Assembly: GCA_030295235.1 (NCBI GenBank) | Contig: AP026131.1 | Coordinates: forward strand, 1,364,001 to 1,428,000 | DNA length: 64,000 nt | Origin: Fistulifera solaris | Lineage: Eukaryota | Direction of reading: 5' to 3' | Part shown: piece by piece, positions 18,409-49,582 of the stretch | How the letters are laid out: each line of letters starts with the position of its first letter | Numbering within the stretch: the stretch's first letter is position 1 | Notes under the pieces: model-generated | The model's database searches: none | The model's input: the letters and a program-made list of their open reading frames with translations, nothing else | Told to the model about the DNA's origin: nothing | Translations under genes and position numbers: made by a program

Positions 18409-20330
18409 ATGAAATACTTGTTGTGCTCCTTCTTCTTACTCAACACGGTGAAGGCCGCTGAGTTGTCGGGTTACTTGATTGACAAGCAATGCATTGCGTT
18501 GTGTACCGGTGCATCACCAACGGCACCGTGTGCACCCGATGGCATCAACGTCTTGTATACGCCGCAACTGCACACGGGTTGGTGTAAGTTGTTGCCCCGA
18601 TGTGTTGCTTCCGGTTACGTTTTGTTGAGTGACACTCCCGATAGTGACGGAATACATCCCATTGTGCTCGAATTGGCCGGTAATGAATCCCAAGCCACGA
18701 CTGTCCAGTACATTGAAGGTCAGACGTCGGGTCCGTTTCCGAAAGTCGTCGTGCAGTACGATGAAACGATAGCGGAAACGAGTGAGGCTGGATATCCTTT
18801 GGCGTTCAATGCGACGATTCAAGATACGTGGGATGATTCCTATTATGCGGGGACATCAACGCACCAAGTTTTGTGTGAAGATGCGACGCAACCCAACGTT
18901 GAGAGCAACAATTTGTGCTTCCGATCCGATGTTTTGGTGACGCTTCGGTCGGATACCTATGTGATCGAAAGCAACGGATGTCCGGATCATCCGAACATGC
19001 AAGGAAGTACTGGTACAGTCGCCAATCCTCAAGGTGATTTCGTTGTTCCGGGTAGAAATGAGACAAGCACTGAAGGTGGATGTGGTGCCTGTGGCTCATG
19101 CGGTGCCGGATGTGGATCTTGCTCGGCGGGCTGTGGTGCCTGGTGCGACGCTGGATGTGGATCTTGCTCTGCCGGGTGTGATGCCGGATGCGACGCTGGA
19201 TGCGGTGCTTGCTCGGCCGGATGTGACGCTGGATGCGGTGCTTGCTCGGCGGGATGTGACGCTGGATGCGGAGCCGGATGCGGTGCTTGCTCGGCCGGGT
19301 GTTACGCCGGCTGCGGCTCTTGCTCAGCAGGATGTGATGCTGCTAGTGCCAATCGGTTCTTGCAAGGTTGTGATGCAGGATGTTCGGCTTCTTGTGGTGC
19401 AAATGCGACCACGGGATGTGGTGCTGGATGTGGATCGTGTTCGGCTGGATGCGATTCCAACTCGACTAGCTGCCGCGCGGCTGGATGTGGTGGTGGATGT
19501 TGTGCAGCAGGTTGTGGTGGATGCGGCGCAGCGGGATGTGGTGGATGCGGTGCAACTGGATGTGGTGGTAATGGCGACTGTCACACCGAATCGCACGGCA
19601 CCTATGACCCCATGTACCAGCATTACACTATGGTCATTCCGCAAGAACCGGGCACTCCAGGTGAACCCACTTACTTGAAGGACGACGATGTGGTGGGCAT
19701 CATGAGCAACGGCATATTGCTTGACACTCACAAGCCTACCTGGAGTTACGACAGTTGCAATGGTCACTCGGACAAGAAGCACCAGTATCATTACCATTTG
19801 CCTCCAAAATGCTTCTTGGAGTCACTCGGTATCGAGTTTGCTGAGAGTCCCGACTGGTGGAAAGATGGGGATCAGGTCCGGCGAGTATGCTGACATGGCC
19901 AACCAGTTCCCTGTGACGGGCCCGGCAAGTCCTGTCATTGGATGGGCGTGATGGTTTCCCCATTTTTGGAATCTCCACGATGACCAAGGCCAGCTGATGC
20001 TACCGTGCTGACTTGGATGAATGTAACGGAAAGGAAGACAGCTCGGGCAATTATGGATACTATATGACCGTCGATCCTCCCTTTGCTCCCGCCCCGTGTC
20101 TTCGTGGAGCAGTGGGTTCGTTCAGTTACTTTTCGACTAAGAAAGCATGCCCCAAAGATGGTATTGTTAACACGATTTTGGATGGCCCCGCCATAGCCGC
20201 ATGTGAGACCGTTCCCTTTGCGGATTTGGCCAATTGTGAGCCTGTCGTCGACGAAACTCCCGAAGAAAGTAGCTGTCGTGGGCGCCTCATGACAGCCTCC
20301 GTGGCGTTCGCTCTTGTCGCTGTGATGTAA
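18409..20330 (+). CDS. Secreted, possibly GPI-anchored YHYH-domain protein with a Cys/Gly/Ala-rich insert (frameshifts near 19880-20010)
   Basis: Signal peptide [54 protein letters not shown] motifs; hydrophobic C-terminal tail. Confidence 0.75.
19075..19580 (+). repeat. Coding minisatellite, units of about 33 bp encoding [15 protein letters not shown] repeats (about 41 Cys)
   Basis: Repeated GGATGYGGTGCTTGCTCGGCSGGATGTGACGCT-like units seen directly. Confidence 0.9.
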
Positions 20331-22359: not shown

Positions 22360-22416
22360 TAGATAGTCTTCCAATTTATTTTCCTATAAAATTTACATTA
22401 TATTACTCTGCAAAGG

Positions 22417-22487
22417 CTAGTGGTTGTTGTTTGCGTTGCGAATGAGGTTGTGTAAGGGCCGAACAAGTTGGGGGTCTTCACTGATGA
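22417..22487 (-). pseudogene. Severed C-terminus of the Harbinger transposase
   Basis: Removing the copia element and one TSD copy gives the continuous frame ...RRNLLVQLI-SEDPQLVRPLHNLIRNANNNH*. Confidence 0.8.
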
Positions 22488-22814
22488 TGTTGAACTCTTT
22501 CACTACCTGTAGAATATTCTAACGAATCCTATAAGGATCCCTGCAGGTAATAGATAGGTTGACAATGTTTTCACTAAATACGATTGATCCTAAGAGTCTT
22601 TCACAAAAGTAAGCCTGTTGCTCATCATCGTTCATTTCCTTCTCTTGTTGGCTTTTCTCTTCAACAAATAAATTCCTACTCTCTACTTGATACTAATCTT
22701 CCACGTCATCTCTCAATGTCGCATCATCATCAGGTTGTTGCACCTCTCATGACTTTGCTAACAATTCCGTCTTGTGAACTATCGGTGTTCAGTTCCTTGA
22801 CTTCACCTCCAACA
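22488..22814 (-). repeat. 3' LTR of the copia element
   Basis: Direct repeat of 27820-28146 with no differences seen by eye; preceded in element sense by a purine-rich CAGCAGGAGTG tract. Confidence 0.97.
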
Positions 22815-25800
22815 CACTCCTGCTGGCCGAGGATGATCTTCTCTCCATTGATATTCATTATCCAACCTCTAAACTTGTGATATTTCACTCCAACTAATGA
22901 CTTCGTCATGTAATCTGCCATCATATCATCCGTAGGACAGTATTCAATTTCCACTTCTCCTTGCTTAATCAAATCGGTAATGTAGAAATACTTGATATCG
23001 AAATGTCGTGTCCGCTTCCCAGAACTCTCTTTTCCGTTCTCTTCCAACTTCATCGAACTCTGATTGTCTCCGATAAATGATGTTCGCGTTCACTTTAAAT
23101 CCTTGTGCTTCGATAAATCTTTTCGTCCAAATCACTTTCGAAATAATATCATCAATTGACACTAACTCTGCTTCTGTCGAACTTCTCGTGTTCACTTTTT
23201 GCTTTGTCGACACAGATGCAATTGTCCCTTTTCCGAGCGTCATTGTCGCTCCAGTATGACTTTTCATGTCCTTGTGGACCGCAAACGCCGCATCAACATG
23301 CCATTTAATTGTCTGCGTATCGTCTGCTTCAAGCCTCAAAACATCGTTCTGCGTGGCTTTCAAATAACGCAAAACTCTGATTAACTTCTGCCAATCTGCT
23401 TCATTTGGTTCCTTCACTCGTTGCCAAGAACGCGATAGCTGGCTGAATATCTTGTCTCGCCCTTTTACACAAAAACATTCCTTTCATTACGAATGTGTGA
23501 AATACTTCCGCTTTCTTCTTCGATAACGGGGGCTTTTCTCATCAATCTTGAAAAGCTTTTCGGTCCATGGTCCTTTCACTTTCTCATCCAGTTCTTCCGG
23601 GAAATCTTCGACCATTCCTTTCACGTAATCGACCATATCAACTTTCAATACACCGGGCTCGGAATAATCAAGCGTCATAGCAAGATAATCGTGCTTTTTT
23701 CCTCGAGTCCCTTCGACCTTCTTCACAGATCCATATTTTTCCTGCAACCATTTCAGAAAATCATCATTCACTTTCGGATCAACATGGCTCGACTTCAAAT
23801 CATCAACGTGCCACGTGAATTGTATGCTGCTTTCCATTCACCATCCGATTTGCAACGCACGGATCATACGGGTTTAGCTCAAATCCGATCTCTTGAATAT
23901 CTTTCACGAACTTCTTGTAATAAAGTAATGCCGAGGTCAACATTCCGTATAACGCCTTCAGCATAATCACATATAGCACTTTCTCGCCGTTCTCCCAAAC
24001 CACATAGCTTGCGTAGACTTCGGGAGCTATCTCCGACTAGTACGTCAACTAAAAAATCCACGGATCTTCATGATCACTCTTTCTCCGTTCTTCCTCGGAA
24101 CTTCGGTCTGTACAAATGCGTTTGGTACGTCACTTGTCATATTGTCTCTTCCTTGTTTTGCTTCAATCACTCCTGTAATGAAAATAGATTCCAACATCAC
24201 TGTCGGACTTGCCGCTTCTTCTTTCGGCGTGTACGCTCTCTGAGTGCTTCCGTTTGCACAAGTGCGCGCTTTTGCGGTTCCGTCGCGTTTCTCCGCTAAA
24301 AATATGAGGCTCTCCATAGCCCTTTGCTTCTCGGTGGGTGTCAGATCTTCAACTCTGGTCGGTTCGAATGTCGTTCGGTCATGCAACTGTTTCATTTCAT
24401 CATAGACCGCGTCTTCACCCTTTTTACCAAGTACTTTCAGTCCTTTCTTCAGACTGTAGGTTTGCGCAAACTGCTGCGCTTCCTTTGCTTGCCACTTTTG
24501 TTGATCATACACATGATCATCGCAATCAATATTGCTTCCTCTCGGGTATACTCAGTTGCTTCATGCTCTTGGCGTAATAATATGGCACTGATGTAAGCTA
24601 TACTTGCTCGGCTTCTTCACCGTTCGACCGCTTCGTGTCTTCTGCACATCTTCTTCGTCATTCACGACGTTGTCTTCTTCGACATTTTCTTCTGCTTCCG
24701 GCGATGGTTGGATTGTCCTCTTCGACTTCCTTGACTTCTTCGTCTTCGCTCTCTGCATTATCATCTTCTTCTTCGACGCTTTCTCCATCATTCACGATGT
24801 CATTATCTTCTTCAAAATATTCCTCTTCGGCTGGCTCGTCATAATAGCCGTCGTCTTCTTCATTTGCGACGTCAGTTTCGCCAAGAATTTCTGCTATTTC
24901 ATTCACATCGACGTAATCTTCTTGATCTTCGTCTTCATCGGCTTCAATTTTCGCATTTTCTTGTTCCACGAGTTCTTCTTCGTCGTCTTCTCCGACTTCT
25001 GAATCTTCCTCACGACTCACTCCTGCAATCCAAGCAGCGTCGTAAAGTACAGCTCCACACTTAGTTTCGACTTTCAATCCTTTCGGCATCTGTTCTTTTT
25101 CTGCCATTCTCTCGACTTGTTCGATCACTTGCTCTGTCGCAACTGGTGTAACTCGGTTTCGATTGATCGTTCTTCCGGTGCTCAAATCCATGAGCTCATG
25201 TCCTCCTTGATGATTTGCCAGTGGACGTAAATAGATGCAATCCAAAGTGCGCGGATCTACCGAATTCTTCTGTTTCGGGCTCCGTATGCTTCTGCACGTA
25301 AGTGCCAAACGGGATTTTGCAATGTTTCTCGTAGTCCAATACCTCTTGATGCATAATCATTCTCGGGCTAAAATTCTGAGAGATCCCATTCTTCGATGGA
25401 AAGTAGTTCAAGTGGCGGGCTGCGTTGAACGCTAAGTGCTTCACCATTAGTCTCGGTAGACGTTTGTATGGGAGTCGATGGTACACCGCCCTGTATCTCT
25501 CTTTCAATACACGATTGTTTCGCTCGGCTTCTGGCACATGCTCTTGTGCTTCCGCAAAATTCATTCTGACATGAAATTCATCTTCAATGTCGTCTTGGAG
25601 TGCACGGTATTCATTATCGCATCGGATCTCAACAATACGAAAGCCTGCCGCATTGTAAATCCGGAATACATCCTTGAGTGCTCCCTTGTAAACTTCGCTT
25701 GTCAAGTTTCCAATCCACTGCACGGTGCGATAGCGGATGTTCAGCGAAATTGTTCCCAAAAAAGTAAAGGCCGTTAACCTTCAACGTATCCATGCATAGG

Positions 25801-27680
25801 ATAACTCTGTGCTGCTTCTGATAGATGGCAGCTGGTACCGCTGACGTAATCGGGAGACAACCGGTGCTGGTTTCTTTCGTGTTGTCTTCCCCTTGAGGCT
25901 TCCTATGTCGGGTCCAAAAATCTGTTCTGCGAGCTGTATGTCTTCCGTCGTGACGGGATTGTTCCGAATAATATTCATTCGGATGATTGCTCGGAAATCG
26001 TCCAACGATGGTGTTCCGATTGCGTGATATAAATCTCTTGCTCGCTTCTCTTTCAAATTGACGGTGCGTGTAAAACGCCTTGTTTTCCTCCACGGAATTC
26101 ATGAACTGATACTCAGTGTTCGTTCGCATTGTCGGCTTAAATATATAAAGGTCATTACCATCGTTGACAAACTTCACCGTTTTGTTCGGTAAGTGTACAT
26201 TGAATGCCGATTGCTCGTGATCGATGCGTGATCTTGTAGCGTCTTGCAACTTCTCCAAAGTTGAACACGTTAATGATGCCCTCAGGGCTAAACCAAACTT
26301 CACCCCATCCAGGAAGATTTGCTTTCAAGTTTGACGTCATCATTCCACCATTTGTTGACACATTGATTTGATCGTCAACTTCTCTAATGTCGGTGACTAG
26401 CTTCTCATTGCAGAAAATCGTTGTCGTAGATCCCGTATCCAACAAGATCCAGTCTCGAGTATCCCACTTGCTCTGGAACAATTGCATAGCTTCAATCTGC
26501 GCGCCTGACCATGCCGTGCTGCTTGGTGCTTTCTGCTCTTCTGCATTATTTCCAGCTACGTTCGCATTTGACTGCTCTTCGTTTGCTTTTGCCTTGTTGA
26601 TCGCCCCATTCCGACTTCGGCTTGTCCTTGTATCGACAGTTCGGCGACTTGTGCCCTGCTTTTCCACAGCAGTAACATTTTCCTTCCATTTGCGCAAAGG
26701 ATAATTTAGGGTTTTCTTCTTCTTCGTTCGAATCTTTTTCTTCTTTCTTCTTGTCATTATTCTTCTTGTGCTCTGACGGCTTCTTGTCAAACTTGTGATT
26801 ACTCATCACAGTGACAGCCTGGACGACAGTTTTCGGGTATTGATCATTCCCGAGCGAGTACTGGGTGTTCAATCCACCCAAGATTGACCCGTATTTGCTC
26901 CTGTCCGAGTTGGCAATAATCATGTATGCCATAAACTGCTCGAATACTTCTTCGTCCTTCATCTTGAGTTGTTCCTTCAACTTCGGTAGCACAATTGGAC
27001 CGCCAATCTGCGATTCCAAAACTTCTCTGACTGACTTGAACCTTTTCATGTAGTCGTTGAGACTTTCATTCTCTTTCTGCTTGCATTCGATCATGTTTCG
27101 GAATGCATCGTATATCGTCGTCATCGGGTATCGGCTTTCTTGGTAGCTCATTGCATGCACTTGAATAGCCTTCAATAGTTCAATTGGATTGTCTTCGATC
27201 TTCTCCTTGAAGTCTTTTTCTCTGCTGGAGTTTCTGTTGCAGTGCTAGTGAGCACATCTCCCACATCAATCCATACGCTTTCGTCTTTGTGTTCACGTAA
27301 TGTCCATATCGACGTTGATGCTGCGCTCGTAATCTTCTTTGAATTTCAATTCAAACTCTCTGTTCTCAGCCGCCTTTTTCTCCGCTTCTGTTTGTCTGCT
27401 GTATTTTAGCTTGGGCTCAAACTGTGTGAAATCGATATCTTTTATCTCGTTCAATGCTTTGGCCACATCGGCGCCCGTGATCCCACTGCTTGATGTGGTT
27501 GATCATGAATTCTTTTGTCGTATCAAAGTCTGACGACTGCTTTGCTGACCCAATGTAAAACTTGTAGTCTTTGATGTCTTTCTTCTTGGCGTAGGGCTTC
27601 TCACTGTTGCCTCGTCCCGACTTCGGTCGGTTGGACTGCTGCCCTCTTCCGCCTCCTTTGCCTCTACCTCTTCCACTCAT
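22730..27680 (-). CDS. Copia gag-pol polyprotein, broken by many frameshifts
   Basis: Zinc knuckle CYCCGKAGHKSPNC; protease WILLDTGS; integrase RCDNEY...EHVPEAERNNR; RT KALYG and WHVDD; RNase H WHVDAAF, SSTEAEL, KRTRHFDIKYF; the ORF ends inside the 3' LTR. Confidence 0.92.
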
Positions 27681-27819
27681 GGCGATTTTAGGCTTTCAGG
27701 ATGTATTGCGGTGATTGTAAACTCAGTTACGTTCTCTTTTGGCTTGGCTGTTGGCTTGTGCTGATGACGTTGCACTTTCGGTGCTTTTCAATTCTTTTTC
27801 CGTGCCTTTTGTGAAAGAC

Positions 27820-28146
27820 TGTTGAACTCTTTCACTACCTGTAGAATATTCTAACGAATCCTATAAGGATCCCTGCAGGTAATAGATAGGTTGACAATGT
27901 TTTCACTAAATACGATTGATCCTAAGAGTCTTTCACAAAAGTAAGCCTGTTGCTCATCATCGTTCATTTCCTTCTCTTGTTGGCTTTTCTCTTCAACAAA
28001 TAAATTCCTACTCTCTACTTGATACTAATCTTCCACGTCATCTCTCAATGTCGCATCATCATCAGGTTGTTGCACCTCTCATGACTTTGCTAACAATTCC
28101 GTCTTGTGAACTATCGGTGTTCAGTTCCTTGACTTCACCTCCAACA
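27820..28146 (-). repeat. 5' LTR of the copia element
   Basis: Direct repeat of 22488-22814. Confidence 0.97.
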
Positions 28147-29365
28147 GATGAGTTGCACAAGCAGATTGCGACGAACGGATGACGAGACAAGCGGATCTGG
28201 ACCTTCTACTTGGTCCCCGACAAATTGAGGTTGGGTTGCATGATTGAAGCCACCTTCGTGCTCAACAAGCCGATCTTCGTAATCAATTTCCACATTATCG
28301 TTGTCAATGATAAAATTGTGTAGCATGCAACTCACCATAAAGATTCGTTGGATCTTTTGTGACCATATGCCATCTTACTTCGAAAGATACGAAATTTCGT
28401 TGTTAGGCGACCAAAAGTCATCTCGATTCGAATCCTCAGCTGAGAAAGAAAGAAATTGAAATTTTTCTGAGCGTCCGTCAAACCATTGCCGCTAAAAGGG
28501 ATAAGAGAATAGTTTGTGAGTGGGTATGCGGAGTCGGCCACTATATAGAAGTCCTTATCAAGCTCATCTCTTGCGAGTCCACGGAGCCAATCAGTGAGGG
28601 CCGGAGACATATCCAAAGCAACACTGTCGCTTGTCTTTCCTGGGGCAGCCACATTTGCATAGGTAAATCGCAATTTTGGATCGCACATGCACTGAGTGTT
28701 GATTCCATAGCAACCGTAATGCTCCGACCAATAATCTCGGCACACTTTCAACTTCGGTTTGTCAACTGCGATCATATACCCATCTAAGCATCCAACCACC
28801 CCGTAAAACACTCCTTTTGCATCGCTGAGTTCATTGAAGCCCACTGCGGCGGCAGTGAGCTCGTCTTTTGTTTTCGGGAGCTGCAACCACATCTCCGGTG
28901 TATCAAGACATGCATTGAAGAACACATCGAGGGCTCGATCAATGGAGGCTCGTCGCGGACCGAACGTATCTTCCAAACTCTTCTCCTTCTCTCCTCCAAG
29001 GAACCGAAGGCTCATTGCAACCACCATTTCCGGCGAAATGTAAAGCAATGGGTCGCCGGTCGAGTTGAGAGATTTCGTTTTATGAAGACGATTTTCTCTC
29101 CAAGAAGATGCACCAGATATTGAAATGACGAGTACGTCATGTGATATCGATTTTGGAAGCCAGAATCACGACATTCGTAAAGGTGTTGACAAAATATCTT
29201 TCGGGCAATGTGCCGCTTTAGATCTCGCCTCTTTGGTTGTCGTAAACGTCGCCGACGACGGATTCTCCGCACCGTCAAAGTACTGAGTTGAAACTGCAAT
29301 TGAATAAGTTGCAGCAATACCAAGTCGTCCGTTGTTTCAAATGAGAATGCGATATGAAGAAACAA
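28147..29365 (-). pseudogene. Harbinger-type DDE transposase (DDE_Tnp_4/HARBI1-like), interrupted by copia and frameshifted
   Basis: FQNRYHMTYSSF, LRFLGG, VGCLDG, INTQCMCD, PGKTSD, IVADSAYP, FNFFLSQLRIRIEMTFGRL, CMLHNF. Confidence 0.92.
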
Positions 29366-38077: not shown

Positions 38078-39109
38078 GGTTTGAGAGTGTGGTGAAAATG
38101 TTAAGATTGTTGGACTTGTGGATCACTCCGGTTGCGCAGAAGATCCTGATGGTTTGAATCATGACGAGCTTTTGAGATTAGTCAATTCAGCACTTTGCAT
38201 TTCCTATTTCGACGCGACAAAGCTCGGGTCGTCTCGTAAATTGCACACAACGGAGACCCCTGAAGGTACAAAAGCACGCAACACGATGCACAATCGACTA
38301 CAAGCAGATGCATTCTTGCCATGCGGAGGACTTCCGAATGCGAATGCAATTGATTGCTCCAGTTATAATAATTTTATTTTGGCAGATGGACGTCCATTAG
38401 CACCGCTAACTGTGGAAGGAGCCAACCTATTTATCACAAAAGACGCCAGAAAATCGATCTTTTAAGATGCTGGTGTCGTTATTGTCAAAGATTCATCTGC
38501 CAAACAAGGGCGGTGTGATGACATCGTCGTACGAGATCTATGCTGCTATGCTGTTCTTGGAAGAAGAATTTGTCGCCAACAAAGCTCAAATTGTGCAGGA
38601 AGTGTTGCAGAAATTGCGCATGTTGACGAAATTGGAAACCCGGAGCTTTTGTTTCGTGAGTATGAGGTGCATGGAAGTTCCCTTCCCGAAATTTCTCAAG
38701 TCATTAGTAACTGTATCAATGCGGCCACCGATGCGCTGACGATTGCGTTGGATTCGTTGTCGGAAGCTGATCAGCAAGCTCTTTGCCTCTCTTTCAAAAT
38801 GTATTTACCCCAAACGATTGCCGATTTAGCCTTTGATCGACTTCACGAGAGAGTCCCGAAGCAATACATCTAGAATGCGATTAGCTCTGCTTTAGCCGCG
38901 AAAATGGTATACAAGAAAGGGACGACTTATGTAATGTCACTCCCCAAAGAAAAGTTGGACATTTTTGTTTCCAATACTTAGAAAAAGAGAAGGAAGTTGT
39001 CGTTTTGCTGCAATCATTGGAGAATGTGGAAATGTCAGAGGATAAGAAACGAGCCGTCATTCAGCTGTTGGAAAAATGTGGTACCCGGACGGCTTTGGGG
39101 GTCTTCTAG
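38078..39109 (+). pseudogene. Partial duplicate of the 3' third of the glutamate dehydrogenase gene
   Basis: Collinear with 48560-49582; nonsense changes (TAA 38463 vs CAA, TAG 38871 vs AAG) and indels; no 5' part. Confidence 0.92.
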
Positions 39110-46085: not shown

Positions 46086-49000
46086 ATGACACTTTGGTTG
46101 AAAATCACTGCCTCTTCTTTCTCGCGACGACTATTGACGCACCGCAATCGTACTAGCTGGTTTCGAGCATTCGCTTCGAATGGTCATGACTCAAATCCGA
46201 ACGATGCGTACCGCATTCCGGGCATGTCGCATCAGTATGGAAGTTTGGGTGAGACGCCGACTTCCCTCCATAAATCACAAGAATCGACGGCGTGGCAAGC
46301 ATCTCACAATATCGAAGTGCAGCGTGTGACCCAAAAAGCCATGATTTATGAACTCATTCATGAACAGACAAGAACGATTGAATCCGTTGTACCTTGGTTT
46401 CTCGAAAACATGCCGGCGGTGTAAGTAATGATGGAGAGGCAATGATAAAGATAGCGAGCGAGTGAGCCGTTGGGGAATAACCCTACAAAACGCACTCTAC
46501 CTTCGAGCAATGTCTATGCTCTATATTTTTTCTCATCGATTGCTTCTATTTCACTTTGCAGTTACTTCCAGCAAGTACCCGAACGCTACCGCATGGATCA
46601 CATGAAAGCCATTGCGGCCGTCAAGGATGCGAACATGGATTTGTATCTCAATTTAAAGTCGCACACACTTGATGGTCGCACCGTCTTGACGTTTATTCGT
46701 CCCGGAACAGCCCCCGGTACATTGTTGCACATGGTGCAAGAATTGCCCTACAAGTATAGTCTCGAAATGCCACTCAGCAGATTGCATGTCTTTTCGACCG
46801 TTGATGAAACCATGAGTTTGAATATGTTCGTGTACGGGCATCGTCCCGTGCACGATGAAGATGTCGATATGGATCTCATGGCACTGGCGGAACCGATATT
46901 GGAGTACGCGGCGAATGTGCAACAGGGGATTGTTGTGGATGAAGAACTGCCGCTGTCACCTTTGTTGGAGAGAGAATCGCTTGTCGAATATATGAAAATG
47001 TGTCGACCGACCTATGTGCAAATTGGTCTTATGAATCCGGCGCGGTTTTGTATGCAGCGTTTGTTGTTTGCGGAAGTTTCGGGAACCGAAGGAGTTGCAG
47101 TGCACATTGGTTTGGCGACAGATCAGACGCCCGAAATGCATTTACCGACGAGTGGACCCTTGTATTGGGTGGAAATGGCTGTAGCGAACAGTATTCCGCA
47201 AGTAGCGTTAGAAAATTTGTGACAGTTGTTGTACCATCACAAATTTGATGTTCAACGTGCGCGTTTGGATATTGTGCCTGATGGTGAAAACGGGAGTGTG
47301 ACGATATTGCGGACATTGATCAGTCCCACATCGTTGTTGTCGGCCGACTCCACCACCGACTGGCAAACATTGGCACAAGAACTCAAGCGGGCAAAATGGT
47401 TGGATCCGGATACCGTTGATTTAGTTTTCGGGAAAGAGCCTTGGTTAGGGATTGCGCGAGGGGAAGTCATTACTGCCATGTCTTCGTTGATGCATCCGGT
47501 ATTGACCAAAAATCAACAGCATGGCGTATTCGAAAGCAAATATAGCCGAAGTTGTCCATCAGCACATTGGTCATGCTGCGTTGATTGCGGATCTCTTCTT
47601 GGATCGTTTTCATCCCGACCATCCGCTGACTGACGAGTTGTATCAAAGCAGACGTGACGACTTGACGCAGTTGATTGCGAAGGAAGTTGAGGATCAGGTG
47701 GCTACATCTATTCTGAGTAAAATGCTGGAAATTGTTGATTTTACCTTGAAAACGAATGCGTACATGCCGAATCGGTACGCTTTGGGCCTGCGACTCAATC
47801 CGTCCGTCATGCATGAGCCGGGGAATACCGCCGAACTGCCGTTCGGAGTATTGTTTGTTCATGGTCGTCGTTTCAACGGCTTTCATGTACGATTCCGTGA
47901 TATCAGTCGAGGAGGTCTGCGATTGGTGACGCCCGCCAACACGGAGTTGTATGCTTTGGAGTCAGCTCGACAATACGACGAATGCTACGGATTGGCATTT
48001 GCACAACAACTCAAAAACAAAGATATGTAAGTATGAAATTGTAGTTACAGGCTTTCGCTCTGGATTTTGTTGCAAGTCTAACATTTTTATCCGCTCTAGC
48101 CCCGAGGGAGGCTCCAAAGCCGTGGCTCTGATCAATACCACAGGATTGAACGACTCGGGCAAGTACTTTGTGATGCGCAAATCAGTGAAAGCATTTACAG
48201 ATACCATATTGGATCTTATTGTAGAAACGGAAGAAACAAAGAAGTTCGTTGTGGATCGCCTAGGTCGACCAGAAGTTCTTTATTTGGGCCCGGACGAACA
48301 GATCATTCCCGGGGACATTGAATGGATTGTGAAGAGAGCGGCGGAGCGTGGGCACAATACACCAGCCGCCTTCATGAGTAGTAAACCTAGGGCGGGAATC
48401 AATCACAAACAATTCGGTGTAACAAGTGAAGGAGTGAATGTGTATTTAGATACAGCTCTTCGTCGTGTGGTGAATATAGATCCAAAGAAGGACTCTTTTA
48501 CCATTAAAATGACTGGGGGTCCCGATGGAGATGTCGCGGGCAATGAGATTAAAATTTTGGTTCGAGAGTACGGTGAAAATGTTAAGATTGTTGGAATTGC
48601 GGACCACTCCGGCTGTGCAGAAGATCCTGATGGTTTGAACCATGACGAGTTGTTGCGACTGGTCCGTTCGGCATTATGCATTTCCCATTTTGATACAACA
48701 AAACTTGGACCGTCGGGCAAGCTGCACACCACTGACACCCCTGAAGGTACCAAAGCCCGCAATACGATGCACAATAGGTTGGAAGCCGATGCATTTTTTG
48801 CCGTGTGGAGGACGTCCGAATACAATTGACTGTTCCAATTACAAGAACTTTATAAAAGCGGATGGCCGTCCTTCAGCACCGCTCATTGTTGAAGGTGCCA
48901 ATCTGTTTATCACAAAAGATGCCCGCAAATCGTTGTTTCAAGATGCTGGTGTTGTCATTGTCAAAGATTCATCGGCCAACAAGGGGGGCGTGATTACATC

Positions 49001-49582
49001 GTCGTACGAGATCTGCGCCGCCATGCTGTTGTCAGAAGAAGAATTTGTCGCCAACAAAACACAGATCGTACAGGAAGTGCTGGAGAAATTACGAATGCTG
49101 GCCAAATTGGAAGCGGAGCTCTTATTTCGTGAATATGAAGCTCATGGTGGTTCGCTTCCCGAAATATCTCAAGTCATTAGTAACTGCATTAATGCAGCCA
49201 CTGATGCACTGGCGTTGGCGTTGGATTCTTTGTCGGAAGCCGATCAAGAAGCTCTATTGCCTCTTTTCAAATGCATTTGCCCAAGACGATTGCTGATTTA
49301 GCGTTTGATCGAGTTCATGAACGAGTACCGAAGCAGTACATCAAGAATGCAATTAGTTCTGCTTTAGCCGCGAAAATGGTATACAAGGAAGGGACGACCT
49401 TTATCATGTCACTTCCCAAAGAAAAGTTGGCGACAATTTTGTTTCAGTATTTGGAGAAAGAAAAGGAAGTTGCCATATTGCTGCAATCACTGGAGAATGT
49501 GGAAATGTCGGAGGATAAGAAACGGGCCGTGATTGAACTCTTGGAAAAAGGAGGCGCTCGCACGGCTTTGGGAGTTTATTAA
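46086..49582 (+). CDS. GDH: Large NAD-dependent glutamate dehydrogenase, probably mitochondrial; introns 46421-46561 and 48027-48099; several frameshifts and an in-frame TGA at 47220
   Basis: GFHVRFRDISRGGLRLV, QQLKNKDIPEGGSK, YLGPDE, GINHKQFGVTSEGV, TGGPDGDVAGN, VEGANLF, KDSSANKGGV. Confidence 0.95.

Follow-up and report, generated by a model that had tools for sequence, protein, structure and literature searches.

A diatom Ty1/copia retrotransposon with a perfect complement of its own LTR at the predicted primer-binding site

Here, we provide comparative evidence that a young Ty1/copia element of a diatom lineage probably starts reverse transcription from its own RNA and not from a host tRNA. 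The element lies in the window, the 64-kb stretch of Fistulifera solaris DNA that was analysed as a whole. Directly behind its 5' LTR, where a tRNA-type primer-binding site (PBS) is lacking, it carries a perfect complement of a segment within that LTR. The duplex formed by the two segments is placed exactly at the LTR boundary and is conserved with covariation in related elements. The original prediction had read this arrangement as self-priming in the manner of the fission yeast element Tf1. Comparison supports this reading, as 28 of 35 relatives have the pair at the same place in differing letters.

The limits of the element follow from its LTR pair and its target-site duplication, which enclose a whole LTR retrotransposon of Ty1/copia type on the minus strand (22488-28146, 5659 bp). 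The 5' LTR (27820-28146, minus strand), TGTTGG...TTCAACA, is 327 bp long and identical at 327/327 positions to the equally long 3' LTR (22488-22814, minus strand). Given the offset of 5332 bases between the two LTRs, the latter includes a second copy of the predicted primer segment at 22595-22609. The target-site duplication TCATC is present upstream (28147-28151, minus strand) and downstream (22483-22487, minus strand) of the element, which therefore has the TG...CA LTR ends and the 5-bp duplication that characterize Ty1/copia. A polypurine-type tract, CAGCAGGAGTG, directly precedes the 3' LTR (22815-22825, minus strand). The junction of tract and LTR start, with ...AGGAGTG followed by TGTTG, is also seen in 22 of the 28 related loci that carry the complementary pair, where the LTRs measure 179-505 bp. 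In the window the junction occurs with zero mismatches at one place, the element's own site. A further match with one mismatch is within chance, and no second element of this clade was seen within the 64-kb window.

Read in element sense on the minus strand, the 5' LTR ends with ...GTTCAACA at 27820 and is followed by GTCTTTCACAAAAG at 27819-27806. The latter is the exact reverse complement of CTTTTGTGAAAGAC, which is located inside the LTR at 27941-27928. The last LTR base (A, 27820) faces 27927 (T) and extends the 14 pairs to 15 perfect pairs. The upstream arm, CTTTTGTGAAAGACT (27927-27941, minus strand), is the predicted self-primer and would correspond to RNA bases 2-16. The downstream arm, AGTCTTTCACAAAAG (27806-27820, minus strand), whose first base is the last LTR base, is the predicted primer-binding site. 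The perfect duplex described in the original prediction, 14 bp or 15 bp with the LTR-terminal base, is hence confirmed between 27819-27806 and 27941-27928 with firm LTR limits, and so is its observation that no TGG-type tRNA PBS follows the 5' LTR of the window element. A repeat search returned the arm pair as 18 nt at 94% (27806-27823 with 27924-27941). No inverted repeat longer than 11 arose when the 666-nt region was shuffled 100 times, as compared to 15 observed. The predicted MFE structure of the RNA 27942-27790 contains the duplex, and so does the centroid structure (-40.2 kcal/mol, z -3.75); 0/200 shuffles were as good.

Self-priming in this element could proceed analogous to that of Tf1. 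Briefly, the A of an initiator-like motif in the 5' LTR (27942) would serve as transcription start. Folding back across ~105 nt of R-U5, RNA bases 2-16 (27941-27927) would then pair with the 15 bases at the LTR/leader boundary (27820-27806). The RNase H of the element would cut the RNA 3' of the paired segment, beside a conserved CTTAGG, and the freed 3'-OH at the LTR boundary would be extended through U5 and R, thereby producing minus-strand strong-stop DNA. The remaining steps would be those of the usual LTR cycle. Plus-strand strong-stop synthesis would copy the primer and thus rewrite the site to match the primer in each cycle, which would account for the perfect match that all elements show. 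The start site, the RNase H cut and the choice of pairing within one RNA over pairing between two are the parts of this scheme that we infer.

Relatives of the element were collected with the RT piece of the window, which matched 378 proteins at E up to 1e-5, many of them full-length polyproteins of ~1600-1670 residues. The named relatives are from diatoms, namely Fragilaria, Nitzschia, Attheya, and Fistulifera. An alignment of 29 full-length relatives (A1) was used to retrieve 79 related loci from metagenome contigs. Many of these contigs are circularly permuted, with a single collapsed LTR separating the pol end from the gag start. Of the 79 loci, 35 include the N-terminus of gag. The sequence upstream of gag has as its longest inverted repeat a perfect pair of 13-17 bp in 28 of the 35 gag-start loci, and the downstream arm of this pair abuts the LTR end. 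Complementarity in related elements, on which the original prediction had staked its reading, is thus widespread. The 28 positive loci and the window element together constitute the comparison set of 29 elements analyzed below.

The placement of the pair is precise throughout this set. The last A of the LTR lies inside the downstream arm in 21/29 elements, and in the other 8/29 the arm starts one base later, after ..AACA (six), ..AAGA (one), or ..AACT (one). The distance between the two arms is 52-183 nt. Across the 29 elements, the median length of the longest complement is 15 at the LTR end, as opposed to 4 at nine other offsets, where it never exceeded 8. Inverted repeats of at least 13 turned up 13 times in 3600 shuffles, counted over the entire region, and repeats of at least 14 five times. 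Identity to the RT piece of the window is 43-69% in the full alignment for 26 of the 28 positive loci, a range that leaves out L054 (26 residues aligned only) and L051 (no match). The self-complementary design therefore appears to span a broad clade of diatom copia elements.

Among the seven gag-start loci in which no pair was found, three have too little LTR on the contig, with 195 nt upstream of gag, ~57 nt of it before the apparent LTR end (L017), 11 nt upstream of gag (L018), and 49 nt upstream of gag (L075). L006 has 191 nt upstream of gag, and the gag match of L047 comprises 27 residues only. L022 and L044, with 288 and 652 nt upstream of gag, respectively, are possible real exceptions. 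L044, a more distant relative, contains a perfect inverted repeat of 43 bp at positions 1-309 of its contig. The first arm of this repeat is the very start of the contig, and the repeat may be an assembly hairpin artefact. In the locus L010, a repeat seemed to continue past the LTR end. The apparent overrun proved to be due to a further copy of LTR, PBS, and leader (41 nt) behind the 3' LTR, and the LTR limit stands. The extra PBS and 41 nt of leader (L010, 5265-5459) are followed by unrelated sequence and may derive from a truncated tandem copy or a recombinant.

The letters of the duplex vary between elements, and the two arms vary together. Among the 29 elements there are 26 distinct 13-mers at the site. 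The mean pairwise identity of the site is 43%, whereas the final eight bases of the LTR reach 79%. A+T makes up 82% of the sites, and 0/29 start with TGG. In a MAFFT alignment of 26 non-redundant R-U5-PBS segments (A2), a helix of 16 pairs has 101 compensatory cells and 89% of its cells paired. Only 17 rows of A2 are in perfect register, which makes the covariation count conservative. Controls with the helix slid along A2 gave 41-50% paired cells and covariation of 0.075-0.144, versus 0.589 observed. Compensatory changes in the duplex among related elements had been proposed beforehand as a check of self-priming. They were found at 16/16 pairs, each changed on both sides, and none of 500 shuffles reached any of five covariation measures.

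Further sequence features accompany the arms. Directly 3' of the primer segment, the window element has CTTAGG (27921-27926, minus strand), which is conserved as CTNAGR and in this form immediately follows the upstream arm in 12 of the 26 rows of A2 (columns ~68-73). It is possibly the context of the predicted RNase H cut. A CCTATT block in mid R-U5 is kept in closer relatives, and the arms between the CTNAGR and CCTATT motifs vary. On the other side of the site, the first and second base after the PBS arm (27804-27805 in the window) are rich in C (15/26 and 14/26, respectively; background C 21%).

The proposal of an alternative hypothesis, that the duplex is solely an RNA structure of the 5' leader, bases on its prominence in the predicted fold, of which it is the main feature. 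Retroviral leaders carry stems around the PBS. Such a structure could act in packaging, dimerisation, translation control, or protection of the 5' end, and priming would then be due to something unrecognised. However, the first base of the downstream arm is the last LTR base or the base after it in 29/29 elements, and the arm takes exactly the place at which minus-strand synthesis has to begin if the LTR is to be rebuilt. No other conserved site follows the arm, and the sites themselves differ from element to element, with none starting TGG. In addition, structural stems usually tolerate G-U pairs and mismatches, whereas the duplex is strictly perfect in its Watson-Crick pairing over 13-17 bp. 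Perfect identity is the outcome expected from a primer that is copied in every cycle. A purely structural role is therefore unlikely.

The RNA of the element is predicted to begin where the complementarity ends, as in Tf1. For the window element this would be the A at 27942 (minus strand; the A of TTA, followed by C), within the interval 27941-27944 given in the original prediction. Relatives have CTCA at this place. CA is found at the 5' edge of the upstream arm in 25/29 elements and TA in two, the window element among them; the A of CA is the last unpaired or the first paired position. At either register CA has a background frequency of 13.5%, which gives the 25/29 a binomial P of about 2e-18. 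Anchored on this A, 24 non-redundant elements share CTCA(+1)YWNTTT. Agreement at positions outside the anchor is likewise high (n = 24), with T at -2 in 17/24, a pyrimidine at +2 in 23/24, and T at +5 in 22/24. The shared motif resembles an initiator element, with its A as the predicted start. By eye, no obvious TATA box was seen ~30 nt upstream of the arm in the 29 sequences.

The boundary of complementarity also bears on self-priming in trans, in which the strand annealed to the site would come from another molecule, either a co-packaged second element RNA (by its 5' end) or a short promoter-proximal transcript. The arms fit pairing in cis and in trans alike, and the same segment is available in the 3' LTR (22595-22609). 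Yet the complementarity stops at the initiator-like CA, as expected of an RNA 5' end but not of the internal copy in the 3' LTR. Fold-back within one molecule is also thermodynamically favoured according to the predicted fold, and for Tf1, passages of a review describe RNA structures that bring the two regions together (PMC7175516). We regard priming by a second RNA molecule as quite improbable.

Self-priming by the 5' end of the element's own RNA could have left a further trace at the site. With the A of CA set as +1, the PBS-strand base that would face the cap guanosine, immediately 3' of the one opposite +1, is C in 22/27 elements, against a background of 21%. After removal of duplicates, C is found in 19/24 elements, i.e., in 10/10 with +1 paired and in 9/14 with +1 unpaired. 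Reverse transcriptases add C at RNA caps. It is tempting, albeit speculative and rather doubtful, to view the cap-facing C as a genomic footprint of the primer being a capped RNA 5' end. Plus-strand strong-stop synthesis would in this case read the primer through to the cap and add C. A templated C at this position would permit clean plus-strand transfer and could thus be selected or written in. If this is true, the diatom copia clade would be a natural record of cap-dependent self-priming, in which transcription start, primer length, and PBS are co-evolving.

Binding of a host tRNA or of an internal tRNA fragment, as in copia with half an initiator tRNA, would require the LTR match to be a tRNA copy or mimic. 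Half-tRNA priming is known in several Ty1/copia lineages, as stated in the sections of PMC6317226 on this subject. The 26 different A+T-rich sites among the 29 elements, however, cannot all be fitted by one tRNA, and judged from the sites alone (0/29 TGG; 26 distinct sites; 43% mean identity; 82% A+T) these elements do not belong to a tRNA-primed class. In addition, no tRNA genes were found in the window or in the 18 of the 79 related loci that were scanned, and Rfam had no match on 22400-28250 at E up to 1. Priming by a host tRNA is thus very improbable. A chance match in A+T-rich sequence, the odds of which are raised by A+T-rich arms, has a negligible probability and is refuted by shuffles of the window region (maximum 11 vs 15), offset controls, and covariation, given that the same placed match recurs with other letters in 28/35 relatives and at the LTR end only.

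Proof of self-priming exists for Tf1, and for the Tf1/sushi group it has been proposed, as set out in the passages on priming in PMC7175516 and PMC4600332. According to these passages, the PBS of Tf1 is paired by the first 11 RNA bases and the RNase H cut falls between bases 11 and 12 (PMC7175516), and the same mechanism is proposed for Tj1 of S. japonicus (PMC4600332). Like Tf1 and Tf2 of Schizosaccharomyces pombe, Tj1, and the Tf1/sushi group, the window element has by its 5' LTR a PBS that is complementary to the start, here predicted, of its own RNA. A tRNA-type site is likewise absent, and fold-back sets the 3' end at the LTR boundary. The mechanism of Tf1 was demonstrated experimentally, whereas the clade of the window element is known here from sequence alone. 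The duplex is 13-17 bp long in the diatom clade versus 11 in Tf1, and the inclusion of the last A of the LTR in the duplex, as seen in 21/29 elements, is unlike Tf1. The predicted +1 A is unpaired in 15/29 diatom elements, the window element included, whereas pairing in Tf1 starts at base 1. The superfamily also differs, as the Tf1 group is Ty3/gypsy and the window element has an RVT_2 reverse transcriptase with an integrase-like region before RT. Membership in the Tf1/sushi group (Ty3/gypsy chromoviruses) was considered and rejected on account of this RVT_2 reverse transcriptase and because RT and RNase H make up the C-terminal end of the polyprotein.

Within Ty1/copia, self-priming was already predicted for plant elements, i.e., the TAR lineage and earlier Houba and Osr-1, in the sections of PMC6317226 on these elements. 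The diatom elements resemble the TAR lineage (Houba, Osr-1) as described there in being copia-type, in the absence of a tRNA-type PBS, and in the computational prediction of self-priming. Unlike TAR, their hosts are diatoms and not land plants, and the likeness to TAR is one of description. Fungal GalEa copias likewise have no tRNA-type PBS. The parts of PMC5445492 on this site describe a 9-bp palindromic hairpin, which includes the final A of the 5' LTR, and report no LTR complement. The site of the window element differs from that of GalEa in being not palindromic and in pairing with a segment inside the LTR. With the CoDi elements it shares the copia type and the diatom origin, a likeness that refers to the diatom origin of the named relatives. 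In the main text of the CoDi paper (Maumus et al. 2009, PMC2806351), the terms primer binding, priming, self-prim, and tRNA are absent and the sole 'PBS' is a buffer.

The original prediction had assumed that self-priming was already suggested for some diatom copias and had left its novelty to be checked. No paper proposing self-priming for diatom copias was found in a full-text literature search. For Ty1/copia at large, novelty does not hold in view of the earlier plant predictions (PMC6317226). The mechanism suggested for the window element is hence not new, and the element would add a diatom copia to known self-priming. Among the alternatives to tRNA priming in LTR retroelements, self-priming is the only well-proven one, with the proof coming from a Ty3/gypsy element of fission yeast. 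Presence of the design across a clade with 43-69% RT identity (26/28 positive loci) suggests that self-priming is either old or repeatedly evolved. Independence from tRNA would then be common in an ecologically major algal group. LTR annotation tools that demand a tRNA-type PBS will mis-score such elements. The perfect arm pair offers a simple marker for them, which also predicts the transcription start of each element.

The copia identity given in the original prediction is borne out by the order of domains and by the relatives. The gag-pol coding region (22730-27680, minus strand) has its ATG at 27680 and its stop inside the 3' LTR, and contains many single-base frameshifts as assembled. In translated order it comprises a gag with CCHC knuckle, a protease with LLDTGS, an integrase-like stretch, RT with ALYG and HVDD, and RNase H. 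The integrase-like region before RT has invariant D..D..E-type residues, with no rve match in Pfam and no match in a PDB profile search with alignment A1 at E up to 0.01. By these motifs, the stretch between protease and RT is a putative integrase. Pfam searches with the 12 frame pieces of the window returned one weak RVT_2 match only (piece 24048-24551; 18.1 bits vs a cut-off of 31.6), a score that is below the cut-off because frameshifts split the domain. Two full-length relatives pass the RVT_2 cut-off of 31.6, P0002 with 38.9 bits and P0030 with 34.3 bits, and P0121 scores 30.7. The relatives above the cut-off identify the window element as copia-type. PF07727 is precomputed for most of 120 relatives among the matches listed.

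Comparison with sequence run X1 helps to explain the broken reading frames. Over 22785-27712, a contig of 4921 nt from this run has 5 substitutions and 25 gaps relative to the window. The 11 gaps listed are without exception single bases that are present in the window and absent from X1, and the contig is short by one base at every listed frameshift place. A near-identical protein shares a 90% cluster with a public Fistulifera solaris protein model of 1942 residues. This model reads through the element by changing frame at the X1 gap places, e.g., 26224, 25277, 24698, 24051, 24033, 23817, and 23070. The reading frames of host genes in other parts of the window are long and intact. The agreement of the frame breaks with the X1 gaps and the intact host ORFs suggest that the frameshifts are probably assembly errors local to the element. 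The real copy of the element is thus probably intact, with its presumed coding capacity based on run X1 and the public protein model.

Run X1 also bears on the age of the insertion. One of its contigs joins 22482 to 28147 and skips 5664 bases, i.e., the element and one copy of the target-site duplication, with 5 letters at the joint that fit either side. The flank on this empty-site contig has many substitutions relative to the window, which together with the joint indicates a second haplotype or a homeologous chromosome without the insertion. Both flanks are covered by X1 contigs in two diverged versions. With contigs over the flanks in both haplotype-like versions and over the empty site, the three sequence runs compared behave as DNA. 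The copia insertion is recent, as evident from the identical LTRs and the empty site in run X1, and this copy of the element is possibly active. On one X1 contig, a loose end of 25 letters at window position 27683 resembles a paired-end library linker of loxP type. It would be a library artefact, which fits X1 as a DNA run.

An ORF with a DDE_Tnp_4 domain (PIF/Harbinger-type transposase; 28141-29027, minus strand) adjoins the copia element on its upstream side and reads into the copia 5' LTR. The copia element is inserted into the 3' end of this DNA-transposon gene. The public protein model P0121, in which the transposase is fused to the copia polyprotein, is therefore chimeric.

Other repeats were observed elsewhere in the window. 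About 1 kb is repeated 10.5 kb apart with 81-86% identity (38078-39102 and 48559-49575), and one of the two copies overlaps an ORF with a glutamate/leucine dehydrogenase domain. Between 31860 and 36146, blocks are duplicated at a spacing of 2.4-2.7 kb with 86-98% identity. The repeats in both regions are probably segmental duplications of host DNA and not LTRs of this clade. A further repeat with spacings of 12, 33, and 45 nt (19098-19353) lies inside an ORF of 494 residues (18409-19893) that has no Pfam match.
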